Positions 538 to 15,480 of a DNA stretch of 64,000 nucleotides are shown in pieces. Both the position numbers and the translations under genes were made by a program. The notes beneath the pieces were generated by a model that did not search any database, was not told where the DNA came from, and saw only the letters and a program-made list of their open reading frames with translations. Source of the DNA: Candidatus Latescibacterota bacterium (GTDB lineage Bacteria; Latescibacterota; UBA2968; UBA8231); contig CBDFJF010000001.1 in NCBI GenBank assembly GCA_965248265.1, positions 672,001 to 736,000 on the forward strand, in the 5' to 3' direction. The first letter of the stretch is position 1; each line of letters begins with the position of its first letter.

Positions 538-1887
538 TCACTCCTCTCGTGGCACCATCCGCATTGGCATGAGTACGGCCTTGTGTCGCCGTTCGGCGAC
601 GTCGAAGTGGATCGGAGGGCGATCGTCCTCGAGATGAATCCGTAGTTGATCTCCCGCAACTGCTAGTGCTGCCACGATCGTTTTCAGGAAGTCGTGGTTG
701 ACGCCCACCCGAAAGGTGCCTGCCTCGAGACCGGTTACCTGGATGGGGCAGCCCACCGAGTACGCCCACTCCGGTCCTTCGATATTCAGGACGTGTGATT
801 CCCCTTCGATTTGGGAGAAACCCTGGTCACGGTTGGTGCGAAGCATCAGCTTCTGCTCTTGACTCGACACCACGAGTTCCACGAGGGGATTGTATTGCCA
901 GCCTGGAGCGCTCTCAGCCGGATGTCTCTGTCTCAGATAAGGCTCGACAGCCTCCACGCACGACATTAGGTCCGCGCTCCCGACGACCGCGCAGATCGGA
1001 CCGGGTTCGCCCACCGCCTTCTCATACTGCACGTAGGGACCAGGGATCGCAGGAAAAGTCGCGCTGAAACCATCGGGGGTCTGCAACGTGGCCTTGTCCT
1101 CGTCGAGTATCAACGTGGCTGTCTCCGCCTCTGGGACGGTGTCGGTGCGCAGGGCACCGAGCATCGCCGGGGCCGCCAGCGTCTCCAGGCCGACACTCGA
1201 CCAGTTGAGAAGACGTGAACCATCGGTGGCTATCACCCTTCCTCCGGCGTCTAGACAGACGGCTTGGAGAATGGGGCGATTCGGATCGTCGCTCCGGAAG
1301 CCGGTGACGTGACGCAGGCCGGCCAGATCGGCGGCGTTGAGCTCGAATCTTTGGGTGCAGCTGGATTCCGACATCGCGATAATCTCCTTTTCCAGACGTA
1401 ATCGGGCTTTCTGCAATCGGCTACGGACGGTGTCCGCTCTCAAGTCCAGCAGAACTGCCGTTTGTCGATACGAATAACCCTTGAGGTAGTGGTGGACGAT
1501 CACCTCCCGGTGGGCCCCGCTTAGCCGGCTCAGAGCAGCTCGCACGAGGCCACGGATCTGTTGCTCTTCCGGTTCATCGCGAGGTACAGCCCCAAACCGC
1601 TCGAGCAAGTCCAGCTGCGCGAGACGACGCCGATGCCACATACGGACCTTGTTGTCCGCAATCGAGCAGAGCCAGGCGCCAAAGCTCTCGGGATCGCAAA
1701 GGGTCTCCAACCGCTGAAAGGCAGCTACGAACGCTTCCTGCAGGACATCCTCGGCTGCCTCTCTGGAACCCAGCTTCCGGGTGATTCGAGCCTGGAGCCA
1801 CGGCGTGTGCTCCTCGACGAGCTTGCCAAACGCCGCGGGGTCACCGGCTGCCGCTGCGCTCACAATGCGTTTTTCATTCCGGTTCAT
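538..1887 (-). CDS. ECF sigma-70 factor fused to a C-terminal DNA polymerase III beta (sliding clamp)-like region
   Basis: Sigma2 (AEDVLQEAF, FGAWL) and sigma4 (TVRSRLQKAR) motifs. These are followed by clamp-like motifs DDPNRPIL..V, ATDGSRL, GPYVQYEKAV, GVNHDFL and a terminal VLMPMR. Likely start is ATG 1887 (MNRNEK). Confidence 0.85.
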   Translation of the reverse strand: MNRNEKRIVSAAAAGDPAAFGKLVEEHTPWLQARITRKLGSREAAEDVLQEAFVAAFQRLETLCDPESFGAWLCSIADNKVRMWHRRRLAQLDLLERFGAVPRDEPEEQQIRGLVRAALSRLSGAHREVIVHHYLKGYSYRQTAVLLDLRADTVRSRLQKARLRLEKEIIAMSESSCTQRFELNAADLAGLRHVTGFRSDDPNRPILQAVCLDAGGRVIATDGSRLLNWSSVGLETLAAPAMLGALRTDTVPEAETATLILDEDKATLQTPDGFSATFPAIPGPYVQYEKAVGEPGPICAVVGSADLMSCVEAVEPYLRQRHPAESAPGWQYNPLVELVVSSQEQKLMLRTNRDQGFSQIEGESHVLNIEGPEWAYSVGCPIQVTGLEAGTFRVGVNHDFLKTIVAALAVAGDQLRIHLEDDRPPIHFDVAERRHKAVLMPMRMVPREE

Positions 1888-2013
1888 GATCACTATATAG
1901 TTGCATCTCGGCGGTGGAAGTATCCCAGATGTAAAACCCAAAGCAGCAAACACGCGAGTTTTAGCCTCTCACCCTTCTGGGTGCAAATCCGCGTTACTTA
2001 GTACCGTCTTCCG

Positions 2014-3717
2014 GTGTCTTTCTCAATGGAACCTATGACTGTGCCCGATCAAACAGACGCTTCACTTGCACGCGCCGCCTCAACGGGGGACCTGGTCGCC
2101 TTTGAGCAGCTCATCCGACGGCACCAGGACAACCTCTACAGGCAGGCTATCAGTTATCTCGGCTGTTTCGCAGACTCCCAGGATGCCGTCCAGGACGCTC
2201 TCTGCGGCGCTTTCGAGCGGCTTCCCTCCCTGCGCGATCCGGAAAAAGTGGCATCATGGCTCCGCACGCTCGTGCGCAACCGATGCCTCAATATCCTCCG
2301 GGCTCGCCAACGACGGAACAAGGCCGAGGCCCTGGCTGAGGCGGCCCCTGTTCCTTCACTGAAGGACACGGAACCTGTGGACGAAACGGTGGTTCATCTG
2401 CTTTGCTTGCTGCCGAAAGCGTCTGCAACCGCCTTCCGGTTGCACTACATGGAAGGCCGGACCGTGGACGACATTGCCAGGACGCTGGAGACCACGCCGG
2501 GCAGTGTAAAGCAACGTCTGTATCGAGCGCGACACCAACTTCGACAGGAGGCGATTGATATGGCCACGACTGATGCAGACCGACTGCCCGATGATTTCCC
2601 AGCCCGGGTCATTGCCCACCTGATAGAATCCGGCCGGTGCGATCGGCTCCATATGCGCTACGACGAGGCCAAGGAGCATCTTCACCATGCCCTCGAGATT
2701 CAACCCGATCATCCTGGGGCCCTGCTCGAGTTGGGTCGGACCTACGGCCCCTTCGGATGGCCTGACGATAATCAGTTCGGCGCGCTGGAAAGAGCCGCTC
2801 GCGTTGCCCCGGATTCACTGGAGGTGACCTGTGAGCTGGCCATCGCCTGCCGGCAGCCCGGACGGGAAGACAGGTTGCAAGCTGCACACAATCGCGCCCT
2901 CGATCTGAGTGAGCATCGCCTGGCCAATCGACCCGATGATATCATGGCCCTCAAGATCCGGGCTCGATTGCTCATCCTGGATAAGGCCTTTGGGGAGGCG
3001 GAACACCTACTACGTAGAGCTGTCGAGCTCAGTTCCTCAGATCAGGAGGCTTGCTTCTGGCTGGCCAGGACACTTGATCACCTGGACCGACGCGCTGAGG
3101 CCCAGCCGCTCTACGAACGGCTCTGCGAGAACGGGGAGGGTACTTTTTGGACGGTTTCAGGGCACCGGCAACGCGCCACCCATCTCGCCTTCCGAGGGGG
3201 TGATATCGAACGGGCAGTCGAGCACATGGAAGAGGTCTGGCGCTTAACCAGGTGGCCGAATGAGGCTATGAACCTGATCTACTTCCTCGGGGCTTGCGAA
3301 CGATTCGACCGCATCCTGGAGTTGTATGAGATGGTCCAGCCGGAACGGCACCATCCGCGAGAACATGCCACTGCGGGCGTCGCCTACGCGCACAGAGGCA
3401 GATTTGAAGAGGCGCAGGCGGCCTGGGAGAGGGTTCTGGAAACAACCGGCAAGACACCGATAAGAGCTGAAGCGTCGCTCCACGTCGCCCGATCTTGTTT
3501 CGAGCTGGGTCAGTCAGACAGAGCCGTGGGACCGCTGGAGATTGGCATGGGTCTGGATCTGACGGACCGCGACGCCCTCGCAGGAAAGCCATCGACGCCC
3601 TTTTGGTCCGTGTGGACTCGGTGGCTGGTAGAGTGCCTAGAGGCGCTGGATTCACATGGCGCTCCGGTCATCCCCCTCCTCGACGGGGTACGTCAGCTGG
3701 CAGAACGGCGATCGTAG
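2014..3717 (+). CDS. ECF sigma-70 factor with C-terminal TPR domain
   Basis: DSQDAVQDAL, SWLRTLVRNRC and SVKQRLYRAR motifs, then helical TPR-like repeats (ALEIQPDHPGALLELG, AEHLLRRAVELS). Start may be ATG 2026 or 2035. Confidence 0.85.
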   Translation: MSFSMEPMTVPDQTDASLARAASTGDLVAFEQLIRRHQDNLYRQAISYLGCFADSQDAVQDALCGAFERLPSLRDPEKVASWLRTLVRNRCLNILRARQRRNKAEALAEAAPVPSLKDTEPVDETVVHLLCLLPKASATAFRLHYMEGRTVDDIARTLETTPGSVKQRLYRARHQLRQEAIDMATTDADRLPDDFPARVIAHLIESGRCDRLHMRYDEAKEHLHHALEIQPDHPGALLELGRTYGPFGWPDDNQFGALERAARVAPDSLEVTCELAIACRQPGREDRLQAAHNRALDLSEHRLANRPDDIMALKIRARLLILDKAFGEAEHLLRRAVELSSSDQEACFWLARTLDHLDRRAEAQPLYERLCENGEGTFWTVSGHRQRATHLAFRGGDIERAVEHMEEVWRLTRWPNEAMNLIYFLGACERFDRILELYEMVQPERHHPREHATAGVAYAHRGRFEEAQAAWERVLETTGKTPIRAEASLHVARSCFELGQSDRAVGPLEIGMGLDLTDRDALAGKPSTPFWSVWTRWLVECLEALDSHGAPVIPLLDGVRQLAERRS

Positions 3718-11305: not shown

Positions 11306-13225
11306 GTGCACTCAGCAAGCAACATCATGAGAACTGATCGACAACTCGTAGAGGCGTGCCTGGCTGGGGAGACCCAGGCCTTCGCTGCCCTCGTGGACCG
11401 CTATCGCTATCCGGTGTACGGGCTGTGTGTAGGCTTCACGAAGGATTTCGACGCTGCAGAGGACGCGGCGCAAGAGGCCTTCATCGCATCCTACCTCAAA
11501 CTCGGCAACCTGCATGAGCCGGATGGTTTCGGCCCCTGGGTCAAGCGCATCGCCATCAACCAGTGCAGGATGTGGCGACGACGGCAAAGACGGTTGGTGC
11601 CCCTGACACCGGAGCAGGAAGCTGTGTTGGCCGACCCGGCACGGTCGCCAGAGGATAGCATCATCCGTCGGGAGCAACGGCAGCAGGTCTTGGGGGCTAT
11701 CGCCGGGTTGAGCGAGGCCCAGCAGCAAGCGGTCGTGCTCTTCTACCTGAAGGAGCTGACTCTCCAGCAGATCGCCGACTTCCTCGAAGTGGAACCGCAG
11801 ACGGTGGAGCAGCGGCTCTACCGAGCACGTAGAAAGCTGAAAGAGAGGAGACTGGACATGGTGGCAGCAACGTTGGAAGGCACGCAGTTGCCGGAGGATT
11901 TCACGGACCAAGTCGTAGCCGAAGCGGTATCCAAGGGTGAGCAGTTGCTATCAGAGAAGGACTGGGCAGCGGCAAAAACGATGTTCAGCCGGGTTACAGA
12001 GGCACTGCCCGATCACGCGCAGGCACACCGCGGACTCGGCCTTGCCCTTGATGGCTCAGTCAAAGCGGCCCTGCGGGAACCAAAGGTGTTCGGGAACGGT
12101 GAATTGGTGCAGGAAACCTTTGCTGCACTCGAGCGCGCCTACCATCTGGGTACGGCGGACGATAAAGTCGTCAACGCCTTAAGTGGACTATACCAGAGGT
12201 TCGGACGCCACCGTGAAGGCGGTGAGTTCTTGGAGGCCGAGGCAGCCCGACGAACCGACTGGTACGAGCAGATCCGTCTGCTCGGACGGGCGATCGGGCT
12301 TTTCTACCACGCGTACTACAAGGACGACTCGTCGAACATGGAGAGTTGCGTGCGCTGCCACCGGCGCATGCGCGCGCTGGTTCCGGCGGATATGGAGCCG
12401 CGACGCAAACTGAGCGCCTGGACGCCGGGCGGTATGTCTCTGGCGTACGCGCACATGGGCTTGTCCCAGGAGGTCTTCGACGAGCTGGAGGCACTCCGGG
12501 ATGCCATCGCCGGTGAGTGGTCAGTGTACGACCACTTCTGCTATACCTTGGCTTACAGCAACCAGCATCGCGAGACGAAGCAGTGGGCCGCCTGTGTGGC
12601 CCAGGGGCGTGAGTTCGTAGACTGGGCGAAGGGGATTCCATCGGACGATCGGCGGATGTTCTTGGAGGCCTTGCAGCTCGACGGCAGGACGGACACGCCG
12701 GAGAGACACAAGGTAGGCGAGTGGGTCCGCTGGTGGACGATTCTCTACACCCTCCACGAGATGATCAAGGCCGAGGTCCAGGCTGGCAGCGACACTGGGA
12801 CGACCTTTGCCGATGTCGAGCTGGCGCTCGAACGTCACGAGCAGCATGTGGGGAGCGCCGACGACAACGAGTCAGTTGAGCAGAGCCAGGAACGTCTTGC
12901 CGGCAACTACCTGATCGGTGGCTCAGCGGCGTACGGGTCTGGGCGCTATGCCAAGGCGGTCGAGTGGTTTGAGCGAGCACAGGAGCTGTTGGGCACACTG
13001 GGTGCGGGACCTGAACCGCTGTATGCCGCGGCCTCGCTAGTCAGTCTCGGGGAGGTTGATGCGGCGAAAGACTATCTGCAGAAGATGGACAACCGCCGGA
13101 TCACGATCGGAATTGGGAGGGCGGAGTTCGAGGCCTGCCGCGAGCTCGACGCTGTGCGCAACGACCCCGACATCATCGCCCTAGTGGAGTCATGGAAGCG
13201 GGCAGAGACCCTAGCCGCTTCGTGA
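11306..13225 (+). CDS. ECF sigma-70 factor with C-terminal TPR domain
   Basis: AEDAAQEAF, FGPWVKRIAIN and TVEQRLYRAR motifs, then TPR-like helices. Probable start is ATG 11327 (MRTDRQL). Confidence 0.85.
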   Translation: MHSASNIMRTDRQLVEACLAGETQAFAALVDRYRYPVYGLCVGFTKDFDAAEDAAQEAFIASYLKLGNLHEPDGFGPWVKRIAINQCRMWRRRQRRLVPLTPEQEAVLADPARSPEDSIIRREQRQQVLGAIAGLSEAQQQAVVLFYLKELTLQQIADFLEVEPQTVEQRLYRARRKLKERRLDMVAATLEGTQLPEDFTDQVVAEAVSKGEQLLSEKDWAAAKTMFSRVTEALPDHAQAHRGLGLALDGSVKAALREPKVFGNGELVQETFAALERAYHLGTADDKVVNALSGLYQRFGRHREGGEFLEAEAARRTDWYEQIRLLGRAIGLFYHAYYKDDSSNMESCVRCHRRMRALVPADMEPRRKLSAWTPGGMSLAYAHMGLSQEVFDELEALRDAIAGEWSVYDHFCYTLAYSNQHRETKQWAACVAQGREFVDWAKGIPSDDRRMFLEALQLDGRTDTPERHKVGEWVRWWTILYTLHEMIKAEVQAGSDTGTTFADVELALERHEQHVGSADDNESVEQSQERLAGNYLIGGSAAYGSGRYAKAVEWFERAQELLGTLGAGPEPLYAAASLVSLGEVDAAKDYLQKMDNRRITIGIGRAEFEACRELDAVRNDPDIIALVESWKRAETLAAS

Positions 13226-13266
13226 AGCAAACGTCTATCACCGGAGCGGCCGCGGTCCGCCAGCGA

Positions 13267-13310
13267 GAATCAGTCAAACGTGTGATGCTCGGCGGGAATC
13301 AGAGTGATAT
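13267..13310. repeat. 44-bp palindromic intergenic repeat, copy A
   Basis: GAATCAGTCAAACGTGTGATGCTCGGCGGGAATCAGAGTGATAT; 37/44 identical to 29846-29889. Confidence 0.7.
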
Positions 13311-13672
13311 TACGACGATCTCGAGAGACGCCGCTGTGCTACGTCGAGTCCCTGCAGCATCTCCTCTACCAAGGCTTTGTGGTGTAGGATTATCTGACGG
13401 ACATATTCGAGCTCGTCGGACGATCTCGCGTAGTGCAGCTTGAAGTCAGCCGGGTTCCAGAAACTCACCCAGCGTTCTTCGGCGCTTGTGAAGTAGACTG
13501 GTTCGCCGCTAGCCAGATATCGCGCCGCCATCTCGAATATGTCTCCTGGGTCACCCAGGTCACCAGGAGCCTCATCGACCTCGAGGGCTTCGTTCACTCC
13601 AAGGGACCGCAACCGTTCCAGAAGCTGTTGGGATTCTTCCTCCATGGGCTCGTAGGGATATAGCCGTTCCAT
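13310..13672 (-). CDS. hypothetical acidic protein
   Basis: AGGAG RBS, 120 aa, directly downstream of the recombinase. Confidence 0.65.
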   Translation of the reverse strand: MERLYPYEPMEEESQQLLERLRSLGVNEALEVDEAPGDLGDPGDIFEMAARYLASGEPVYFTSAEERWVSFWNPADFKLHYARSSDELEYVRQIILHHKALVEEMLQGLDVAQRRLSRSS

Positions 13673-13699
13673 GAGTTTTTCTCCTGTCGTGTCGTGTGG

Positions 13700-14638
13700 T
13701 TAGGTGAGAGTACCGGCATCGAGGCTCCTGATCGCCTCCACAAGCTGCTGAGGGCGCGCCTTCGCGTATCTCAGAGCCATCTCCATCGATCTATGTCCCA
13801 TCAGCTCCATGATCCGATCGAGCGGCACACCCCTGTCCCTGAGCCTTGTAGCGAAGGTGTGGCGAAGCTGATGGAGGTGGACGTGCCCGACCTGCGACCT
13901 CATTCCAGCGCTGTGCAGCGACCTCTTAATGTCGCCGAATCGAATCACTGGCTGATCATGCATCGCCAAGGCCGGCTTTAGCTGTGCCAGCAGCGACCAG
14001 ACTCGATCCGTCATCGGGATCACGCGATAGTCCTTGTTCTTCGACTGCCGCACAGTCACCGTACCAGCCTCGAAATCGACATCACGCCAGATCAATCGTT
14101 GGATTTCCGAGCGTCTCATACCCGTGTCGGCTGCCATGATGACCACCTGTCTGGTGCGCTCCGGGCATGCTTCGATCAGCGATTCCAGCTCAGCGTCGCT
14201 GAGGGCGTCTGGTACCGTGCTCTGCTCCTTCAGCATCGTGACTCTGGATGTGGGGTCATCGGTGATGTAGTCCCAATTGCGCGCCGTTTTGAACAACGTT
14301 TTCAACGTCGCCAGGTAGCGGTTGGTTGTGGACGCGGTGACCCCGTCGAGGTTCCGCCGGCGGGTCAGATACCGATCGATCTGGCGGGTGGTGATGGATT
14401 CCAGGGGTAGGTCGCCAAACTCGTCATCCAGCTTCCGGAGCATGCCTGACAGACCTCGCCAGGTGTTGGGGCTCCAGCCGCCGAAATCCGTACGGAATTC
14501 GGCGAGAAACTGGCCGAAGGTGCAGCTCGTATCGCTGTCTGTAGCTGGGTTACACTGCCTATGCCCCTTTGCGGTCGCGGTCGTGGACCGTGCGCGCAAG
14601 TTCAAAGACCTCTGCAGTGTGTCGGTCATCTTGCTCAA
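13700..14638 (-). CDS. tyrosine recombinase/integrase (XerC/D-like), copy 1
   Basis: Catalytic R (TGMRRSE), K (QSKNK), HQLRH, GH and Y (LRYAK) all present. Confidence 0.92.
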   Translation of the reverse strand: MSKMTDTLQRSLNLRARSTTATAKGHRQCNPATDSDTSCTFGQFLAEFRTDFGGWSPNTWRGLSGMLRKLDDEFGDLPLESITTRQIDRYLTRRRNLDGVTASTTNRYLATLKTLFKTARNWDYITDDPTSRVTMLKEQSTVPDALSDAELESLIEACPERTRQVVIMAADTGMRRSEIQRLIWRDVDFEAGTVTVRQSKNKDYRVIPMTDRVWSLLAQLKPALAMHDQPVIRFGDIKRSLHSAGMRSQVGHVHLHQLRHTFATRLRDRGVPLDRIMELMGHRSMEMALRYAKARPQQLVEAIRSLDAGTLT

Positions 14639-15480
14639 CTGCTCAATCCACCTCCCACGGCATCGGTCTTCTCATGGGAGTCGACCCGAGACACATCACC
14701 AAGTCCCTTCCAAAGGACACGCCGCAGCGAGTCGAGTTCGGAGGTAGCCGGCAACGATTCGACTTGCCGGCCATGGGTCACAAAGGGGCCTCCGCATTCG
14801 GCAGGCAGATCGATCTCTATGGACTCGCCTCCTCCCGGCTGGTTGAGATGGACGCGAGCGTCACTGGTAGACCGTATTGGCAGCACAATGCTGGGCTGCA
14901 ATTCGAATGGCTCGAACCAGGCCAGCTGATGCGCCAGTTCGCTCAGCTCCCAACTGTCGAAGCACTGGTCGAGGAGTTCGATTTCGCTTGAGCTGCCATT
15001 CTCGACATTGATACCAGGAAACCCCCGATATGTGCACGTGCGTTTCTCACCACCGCGGGTGAAGTGCAGCAGGATCGTGCCAGAGTCTTTGAGCCCGAGT
15101 GCATACAGCGTGTGGAGCGTTGGAGCATCAGGCAGTTCAGGCTCTGGATAAAAACTCGCCTGAGCGTTCTCGATACCGGACTGAAGATCACTCATCAGCT
15201 CCGCTTCCTTGCGGACAGCTGCCCGGAGGTCGTACAGCTCCTCCGGCGTGCTGGCATTCCGGTACGTCAAGGGGCCCTCGAGCGCTCCCAGCCCTGATTC
15301 GACCTCGTTCTCGAAGTAAACCGGTACTCCTGAAGCCATGAGGTCGGTCACCATTGAGAATACCTCCTCGCGGTCGAGGCACAGCGATAGCTCGAGCTCT
15401 GCCGACTCCACTGGGCCGTTAGCAGCCTTGAGTATCTCGATTGCTGCTTGCTGATCGGGTTCAAGGTAGATGGGTGTCAT
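14635..15480 (-). CDS. winged-HTH domain hypothetical protein
   Basis: GAGGAGG RBS before ATG 15480. The N-terminal GPVESAELE...REEVFSMVTDLMASGVPV region resembles 30844-31191. Its stop overlaps the recombinase start (ATGA). Confidence 0.6.
   Translation of the reverse strand: MTPIYLEPDQQAAIEILKAANGPVESAELELSLCLDREEVFSMVTDLMASGVPVYFENEVESGLGALEGPLTYRNASTPEELYDLRAAVRKEAELMSDLQSGIENAQASFYPEPELPDAPTLHTLYALGLKDSGTILLHFTRGGEKRTCTYRGFPGINVENGSSSEIELLDQCFDSWELSELAHQLAWFEPFELQPSIVLPIRSTSDARVHLNQPGGGESIEIDLPAECGGPFVTHGRQVESLPATSELDSLRRVLWKGLGDVSRVDSHEKTDAVGGGLSS

Follow-up and report, generated by a model that had tools for sequence, protein, structure and literature searches.

An extracytoplasmic function sigma factor from a Latescibacterota bacterium with a C-terminal extension descended from the DnaN sliding clamp

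The DNA analysed here is a stretch of 64,000 nucleotides (nt) from a Candidatus Latescibacterota bacterium (assembly GCA_965248265.1, contig CBDFJF010000001.1, positions 672,001 to 736,000), referred to below as the window, and we focused on a single gene near its left end, at 538..1887 on the minus strand. The gene encodes a sigma factor of the extracytoplasmic function (ECF) type, group 4 of the sigma-70 family. ECF sigma factors with a regulatory extension are a known kind of protein; in this one the extension is derived from a sliding clamp. Its residues 176–449 are homologous, far beyond chance, to domains II and III of the beta clamp DnaN. Moreover, the pocket that binds clamp-binding-motif (CBM) peptides is selectively conserved and is the best-conserved part of the extension. 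The reading that we prefer, to which we give a probability of roughly 60%, is that the protein is a one-component ECF sigma factor whose clamp-derived tail would serve as a built-in regulator with a live peptide pocket. The parts of the gene on which the argument depends are the following.

538..1887, minus strand: the whole gene, an ECF sigma factor with a clamp-derived C-terminal extension (open reading frame and translation, 449 amino acids and a stop).
1624..1821, minus strand: sigma-2, residues 23–88 (Pfam Sigma70_r2, PF04542, E 1.2e-12, 47.9 bits against a cut-off of 24).
1603..1617, minus strand: QLDLL, residues 91–95, at the start of the sigma2-sigma4 linker (fits Q-aliphatic-x-[L/M]-[F/L]).
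1393..1548, minus strand: sigma-4, residues 114–165 (Pfam Sigma70_r4_2, PF08281, E 2.2e-11, 43.6 bits against a cut-off of 25.7).
1009..1356, minus strand: the half resembling clamp domain II, about residues 178–293, by profile and DnaN alignment; it holds ATDGSRL and PGPYVQYEKAV.
556..1008, minus strand: the half resembling clamp domain III, about residues 294–444, by profile and DnaN alignment; it has the family-specific insertions EPYL..RHP....GW.Y.P and W374.
559..576, minus strand: VLMPMR, residues 438–443, the C-terminal strand of the pocket, equivalent to E. coli V360–R365.

The frame runs through 449 codons uninterrupted by a stop. Residues 1–175 form a complete ECF core, in which sigma-2 ends at residue 88 and sigma-4 starts at residue 114. 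The general ECF model of NCBIfam, TIGR02937, gave 83 bits for the protein against a cut-off of 42.9, and a Pfam scan of all 449 amino acids (aa) found no sigma domain besides sigma-2 and sigma-4. After residue 175 comes an extension of 275 aa, which thus reaches more than 50 aa beyond sigma-4. The original prediction, made from the letters of the DNA, had described a complete sigma2/sigma4 core followed by five strings that it matched to motifs of the beta clamp. The core is borne out by Pfam and TIGR02937. All five strings are present in the last 275 residues of the translation in the order claimed, namely DDPNRPILQAV (200–210), ATDGSRL (220–226), IPGPYVQYEKAV (282–293), GVNHDFLKTIV (395–405) and VLMPMR (438–443), and when the protein is aligned with E. 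coli DnaN they fall on the corresponding E. coli strings.

The clamp homology of the extension did not show in searches with the single sequence and required a family profile. By themselves, the C-terminal 275 aa gave nothing significant in Pfam, with no clamp match at E up to 1; against the PDB sequences they gave nothing clamp-like, only two antibody chains (E 0.25); and in NCBIfam only a PCNA model was matched (E 0.1, far under the cut-off). In fact, the whole protein stays below every clamp threshold of Pfam and NCBIfam (TIGR00663, PF02767 and PF02768). We then searched the PDB sequences with a profile built from 16 extension-only rows, and it matched bacterial beta clamps at E 8.8e-20. 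Profile positions 5–145 correspond to E. coli beta residues 124–273 (domain II), and positions 210–274 to about residues 306–366, the end of domain III, of clamps among the matches listed. Two AlphaFold models were also computed, one with 33 close relatives (predicted local distance difference test, pLDDT, 78; predicted template modelling score, pTM, 0.58) and the other with a 44-row alignment of diverse relatives (pLDDT 90.8, pTM 0.74). Both were compared with the PDB by Foldseek, and beta sliding clamps were the sole kind of structure among the matches listed, with best E values of 2.3e-14 and 2.9e-14 over approximately 280 aligned columns at 13–19% identity. Profile and models together uphold the domain II–III architecture that the original prediction had proposed. 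Its suggested Pfam check came out divided: the protein itself has no DNA_pol3_beta match, but a relative, P0146, exceeds the Pfam cut-off for DNA_pol3_beta_3 (PF02768) with 28.7 bits against 27. In the ESM Atlas, clusters named “putative DNA polymerase III subunit beta” were found at 0.84, which is under the 0.9 level taken as a lead.

To learn which parts of a clamp the extension has kept, we aligned the extensions of 40 family members with DnaN of E. coli, DnaN of the genome itself and two DnaN-like sequences. Compared with the beta clamp (TIGR00663; PF00712, PF02767 and PF02768), the extension is alike in the fold and sequence of domains II and III, in its pocket and in ending just after MPMR, and it differs in having no domain I, no ring interface, a degenerate channel and a fused sigma core. 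Domain I is missing in both the profile and the DnaN alignment, in which only domains II and III align. The dimer interface of the clamp is described in PMC11139829 as head-to-tail, with Ile78 and Phe106 packing with Ile272 and Leu273. In our protein Pro316 and Tyr317 take the place of the latter two, and 20 of the 40 rows of the family have Pro at position 272. In domain II the second channel helix is shortened by six residues, and no helix is predicted there. The helices of our protein that would face DNA have net charges of 0, −2, −3 and 0; in the first helix of domain III the charge is −3, where E. coli has +1, and for two of the would-be channel helices the family means are −1.75 and −1.93. 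Moreover, the insertions in domain III, with conserved residues EP[FY]L..RHP, GW.Y.P and W374, lie on the surface that is the dimer interface in real clamps. A separate, true three-domain dnaN is present elsewhere in the genome (257.5 bits against TIGR00663); it was the sole match of a genome search with that model, which did not retrieve the 538..1887 gene. With domain I and the interface pair lost, a channel helix shortened and a genuine dnaN elsewhere, the extension is a clamp remnant specialised on the peptide pocket and not a clamp. One could imagine instead that the two-domain module trimerises in the manner of PCNA or gp45, or joins the host clamp, so that the sigma factor would become a sliding activator on DNA. 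The PCNA monomer also has two domains, and the weak archaeal PCNA match in NCBIfam (E 0.1, far under its cut-off) points the same way. Nevertheless, we consider such a ring very improbable in view of the missing domain I, the lost hydrophobic interface pair, the shortened channel helix and the neutral to acidic channel helices.

The pocket has fared differently from the rest. As listed in PMC11139829, subsite I comprises R152, L155, T172, G174, H175, R176, L177, P242, R246, V247, V360 and M362, and subsite II comprises H175, N320, Y323, V344, M362, P363, M364 and R365. At 15 of the 18 pocket positions the residue most common in the family is that of E. coli, compared with 38 of 215 other aligned positions. 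For our protein alone the identities are 12 of 18 and 33 of 215. Entropy is lower in the pocket columns (one-sided Mann-Whitney p 4.6e-6, columns and sequences not being independent of each other). Met362 is retained in 38 of the 40 rows and Pro363 in 39, which places them among the most conserved columns. At the level of residue conservation, this agrees with the peptide pocket that the original prediction had seen in the extension. Less likely, the pocket is vestigial: the clamp fold would be a mere scaffold that stabilises the protein, lets it oligomerise or offers the sigma domains a place to dock, and the motifs would persist because they hold the fold. The fold does end with MPMR as its last beta strand, several pocket positions vary (at His175, 14 of 40 rows have H, 9 have R and 4 have S; at Pro242, 22 have P and 17 have V), and AlphaFold places no peptide in the pocket. 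What makes us doubt the scaffold explanation is that conservation concentrates on the pocket, as the counts above show, while change was tolerated in other structurally important features of a clamp, its interface and channel helices.

To see how widely the fusion occurs, we compiled its relatives from several data sets. A word-indexed search with the extension yielded 41 matches, about 35 of which are 414–469 aa long, have the sigma Pfam domains and show 52–62% identity within the extension. An exhaustive HMMER search of 1.84 billion representatives (at 50% identity) yielded 84 matches at E up to 1e-3. According to two family hidden Markov models (HMMs), 43 of these representatives carry both the sigma and the clamp parts, 31 of them with at least 400 aa; 40 are clamp-only, including 16 fragments shorter than 200 aa; and one match, an ankyrin protein, was discarded as spurious. 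Fourteen clamp-only representatives (261–324 aa) were checked further. Five of them share a 90% cluster with fused members of 362 to 466 aa, six are on contigs of at most 1437 nt, and neither applies to P0096, P0050 and P0066; a firm stand-alone clamp-only form was not found among the 14. In species-representative genomes we obtained 26 full-length and 2 truncated loci, 23 of them titled Latescibacterota and 5 Gemmatimonadota. The fusion is present in 64 of 168 genomes of Latescibacterota, as an open frame of 422–510 aa and in one copy each. By a hand tally, the four families of the window's class have it in 30 of 76, 1 of 3, 18 of 22 and 15 of 31 genomes, and none of 36 genomes from other classes of the phylum carries the extension. 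Two distant fused members bear a taxon name, P0052 from Handelsmanbacteria and P0149, which is titled Gemmatimonadota. Public names of the relatives, where they exist, are only “sigma factor” or “hypothetical protein”. Even in distant fusions the sigma part is recognised by the family's sigma HMM (1e-21 to 1e-58), so that the core and the extension evolve together.

These counts also bear on whether the fusion is real. The original prediction had called for a search for the same architecture in other genomes and for reads across the junction. The former search was answered by the 26 full-length loci and the 64 phylum genomes. As to the latter, a short-read contig of 1260 nt matches positions 400–1651 with zero differences and bridges the junction of sigma-4 and the clamp part, but the short-read runs are of one sample, probably the source sample, so that the contig is not independent support. 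An error of assembly or gene calling that joined a sigma gene to a clamp fragment has in our opinion a practically negligible probability: the same open frame recurs in the phylum, many times in single-contig assemblies, the short-read contig crosses the junction, and the junction sequence is conserved.

Several observations on the family may be recorded here. Two complete genomes (P0039 and P0042, at L023:6001-6693 and L024:6001-6702) have frames of 268 and 278 aa that stop about 60–80 residues into the clamp part; these truncated copies retain the conserved upstream motif described below, and they suggest decay or a shortened variant in some lineages. A Poribacteria locus (L042) was rejected as a clamp fusion, for it encodes an ECF-WD40 protein. 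The two-domain clamp module is also found behind a MerR helix-turn-helix (P0123) and before a SEC-C zinc motif (P0086), and in P0066 perhaps behind a zinc ribbon (a weak match, E 0.003). The nearest other relatives of the sigma core (P0150–P0152, P0154 and P0160; P0158 and P0161) bear different extensions. One such group has a bifunctional-nuclease domain (PF02577) and the other a nucleotide-binding domain of the ATP-synthase alpha/beta type (PF00006), P0154 and P0158 having been checked.

Immediately upstream of the gene lies one more feature.

1900..1925, minus strand: the bipartite, promoter-like motif GGATAC-N15/16-GCAAC, which ends 12–13 nt before the ATG and is present in 26 of 28 related loci.

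The motif stands at the same place in these 26 loci, including both truncated copies, even though the proteins share only some 60% identity. In form it resembles a bipartite promoter followed by a very short leader, and it is perhaps autoregulated. We took the ATG at 1887 as the start because the motif occupies 1900–1925, between this codon and a GTG at 1953; the GTG was considered and dropped. Inside the gene, Met172 at the junction of sigma-4 and the clamp part (window 1354..1395, minus strand, residues 165–178) is invariant in 33 close relatives and common in distant ones. It is preceded by AAGGAG at a distance of 9 nt, and several truncated records were called exactly from there. An internal start at Met172 that yields a free clamp module is conceivable from these signals.

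The surroundings of the gene were compared between its own genome and the related loci. In its own genome the neighbours are ECF sigma factors with tetratricopeptide repeats (TPR), one divergent at 2014..3717 on the plus strand and one downstream that ends at 85; none of the genome's own neighbours stands beside the gene in the 28 related loci. Within clades, the conserved neighbours serve metabolism or transport or are toxin-antitoxin genes. Pfam assigned the scanned neighbours to ECF-TPR, enoyl-CoA hydratase, creatininase, HAD, GNAT, LolA-like, MFS and YoeB/YefM families. No anti-sigma family was found among the Pfam-scanned neighbours of the own genome and the related loci, a scan which covered part of the open reading frames (ORFs) and left several of them without a Pfam match. 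A YoeB/YefM pair is directly upstream of the gene in four loci (L002:5307-5880 on the minus strand, L019, L024 and L028). In a GC-rich clade (L013:3785-5992 on the plus strand, and L020) an ORF of 700–735 aa that Pfam does not recognise runs on the same strand and stops between 3 and about 100 nt short of the start of the gene. In L013 it extends over the promoter-like motif, and it may be either a partner in an operon or a frame called in excess. The gene is one of five sigma ORFs in which sigma-4 is followed by 100 aa or more, and all five fall in a stretch of about 28 kb (G000:C1:657150-685225, window −14850..13225); they are all such ORFs among the 14 of the genome that match a sigma HMM. 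Three of the five are ECF-TPR by Pfam, including 2014..3717 and 11306..13225 of the window (both on the plus strand); the others are the clamp fusion and an ORF of 401 aa. A fragment of a Y2-type transposase (PF04986, 215 aa; L056:7555-8199 on the minus strand, equal to G000:C1:667555-668199) lies about 4 kb beyond the left end of the window.

ECF sigma factors with fused extensions are the one-component systems of the sigma family, and to our knowledge only a few types of extension have been studied, namely SnoaL-like, TPR and Cys-rich. ECFs with C-terminal extensions are described as having no anti-sigma factor, and the kind of extension follows core phylogeny (PMC7826278). For ECF41, inhibition by the extension is described as acting through contact with a motif in the sigma2-sigma4 linker (PMC7826278 and PMC8999054). 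Our protein resembles ECF41, ECF56 and ECF294 (SnoaL-like), ECF42 (TPR) and ECF238 (Cys-rich) in having a core plus an extension of more than 50 aa and no anti-sigma gene among the neighbours scanned (PMC7826278). It further resembles them in a group-specific linker motif and in a core that co-evolves with the type of extension (PMC7826278 and PMC8999054). It differs from them in the nature of its extension, a module of two clamp-derived domains that has a peptide pocket. We favour a built-in regulator because the lack of an anti-sigma gene among the scanned neighbours, the co-evolution of core and extension and the linker signature all parallel the extension-bearing ECFs. The mechanism that we propose would run as follows. 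A cytoplasmic sigma factor carries an extension descended from beta-clamp domains II–III, which would take the place of an anti-sigma factor and pack against the sigma2/sigma4 core. The pocket would read a short linear motif of the form Q-hydrophobic-x-hydrophobic, and on its occupancy would depend whether the core, together with its linker, is available to RNA polymerase. Peptide binding by the pocket, regulation by the extension and the identity of the ligand are what we infer from the sequences; as candidate ligands, the protein's own linker and the clamp-binding motif of another protein are open alternatives. The one-component regulator of the original prediction fits the absence of an anti-sigma gene among the scanned neighbours. 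The replication or repair partners and the clamp-targeting antibiotics or toxins that it named as possible ligands are candidates, and an effect of their binding on sigma activity would be hypothetical. The word “decoy” used there presumes a ligand supplied in trans, but the protein's own linker QLDLL is an equally open alternative.

The linker was therefore compared in the whole family. A clamp-binding motif has the form Q-aliphatic-x-[L/M]-[F/L], and acidic residues follow it in natural ligands (PMC11139829). In our protein and its close clade the linker signature is QL[DN]LL, then acidic residues. The column of Gln91 has Gln in 41 of 44 diverse family members, and in 1 of the 13 other sigma ORFs of the genome. 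A loose Q-hydrophobic-x-hydrophobic pattern is present in 39 of the 44 members, against a background of 0.7% per position. One specific form of regulation would be autoinhibition by a pseudo-ligand, in which the linker QLDLL is held in the protein's own clamp pocket and the sigma factor is locked shut. Free proteins or peptides with clamp-binding motifs would then compete for the pocket and release the linker, for example polymerases or repair factors that are off the replisome clamp, or clamp-targeting compounds. We regard this form as unlikely. The strict clamp-binding motif is found in only 13 of the 44 members, and distant members show the spacing of an amphipathic helix (QLRLEEMI and QIRFEQLL). 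Moreover, residues 66–99 are one helix in both AlphaFold models, with pLDDT of about 51–64 over residues 91–100; therefore the models do not show the linker motif docked in an extended form. If the pseudo-ligand form were true, the sigma factor would let transcription respond to the condition of the clamp's network of interactions.

The pocket could also be put to use without any switch. In late transcription of phage T4, gp55 and gp33 act with gp45 through clamp-binding peptides, and gp45 is a separate, loaded ring that tracks on DNA. The present fusion is like this system (gp55, gp33 and the gp45 clamp) in that a sigma-family protein is joined functionally to a clamp fold (PMC2988020), and different from it in that the clamp remnant is covalently fused and unable to form a canonical ring. 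By analogy, the extension may be an adaptor whose pocket tethers proteins with clamp-binding motifs (polymerases, mismatch-repair or replication-control proteins) to the holoenzyme, or the sigma factor to them. Transcription would in this way be coupled with repair or replication, and the activity of the sigma factor would be left uncontrolled. A pocket conserved like that of a working clamp would suit an adaptor, and so would the T4 precedent of a sigma-like protein that works with a sliding clamp (PMC2988020). Still, we give the adaptor a low probability, for nothing in the context scanned points to repair or replication genes, and an intramolecular interaction better fits a sigma core and linker that have evolved together with the extension.

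Structure prediction lends the built-in regulator that we prefer some support. The AlphaFold model from the 44-row alignment (pLDDT 90.8, pTM 0.74) speaks for a defined arrangement of the domains, and the predicted docking of core and extension gives weak support. For the complex of residues 1–175 with residues 176–449 the ipSAE score is 0.52, against 0.01 for the best control; 58 of 80 solved complexes pass the mark, as do 2 of 110 mismatched pairs, and 7 of the 80 solved complexes and both of the passing mismatches do so with scores of at most 0.60. The docking runs agree in at least 87% of contacts, with partner pLDDT of at least 78. Several results weigh against this regulator. First, the docking score just given is weak. 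Second, our protein has Val at the position of Pro242, Ala at that of Val247 and Ser at that of His175; the genome's own DnaN likewise has Val and Ser at two of these positions. Third, the pocket residues partly line the C-terminal strand, and their conservation may be partly structural. Fourth, no regulon was found: GG[AG]TAC-N15/16-GCAAC occurs 10 times in the genome compared with 16 in a shuffle, the gene's own site looks like the only real one in the genome, and no second site of the GGATAC type was found in the flanks of the related loci. Fifth, the neighbouring genes are not conserved between clades and give no functional hint. Finally, an unrecognised anti-sigma factor might lie among the neighbour ORFs that were unscanned or without a Pfam match.

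Fusions of a clamp part to another class of regulator were mentioned in the original prediction, and such proteins do exist. P0123 is a MerR protein with DNA_pol3_beta_2 and DNA_pol3_beta_3 by Pfam, and it matches the extension at E 9.2e-4. It is like our protein in placing a DNA-binding transcription module before the same two clamp domains; it differs in that the module is a MerR helix-turn-helix and not a sigma core, and in that its clamp part is nearer to the Pfam models. A literature search found no paper on MerR-DnaN-like fusions and no description of an ECF-clamp fusion. Neither “clamp” nor “polymerase III” occurs in the main text of the ECF classification papers that were examined or of a review on non-canonical ECFs, and “DnaN” is absent from the main texts of those classification papers.

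Taken as a whole, the extension points to a mode of sigma-factor switching not described before. An extension derived from a clamp, with an intact pocket for the docking of short linear motifs, would give the ECF one-component systems an input that reads peptides, and it would show a second life for the beta-clamp pocket outside replication. It would also offer a compact, testable system for the gating of the sigma linker. The presence of the two-domain module on a MerR regulator as well suggests that clamp-derived sensor domains are a recurring, unstudied theme in the control of bacterial transcription.

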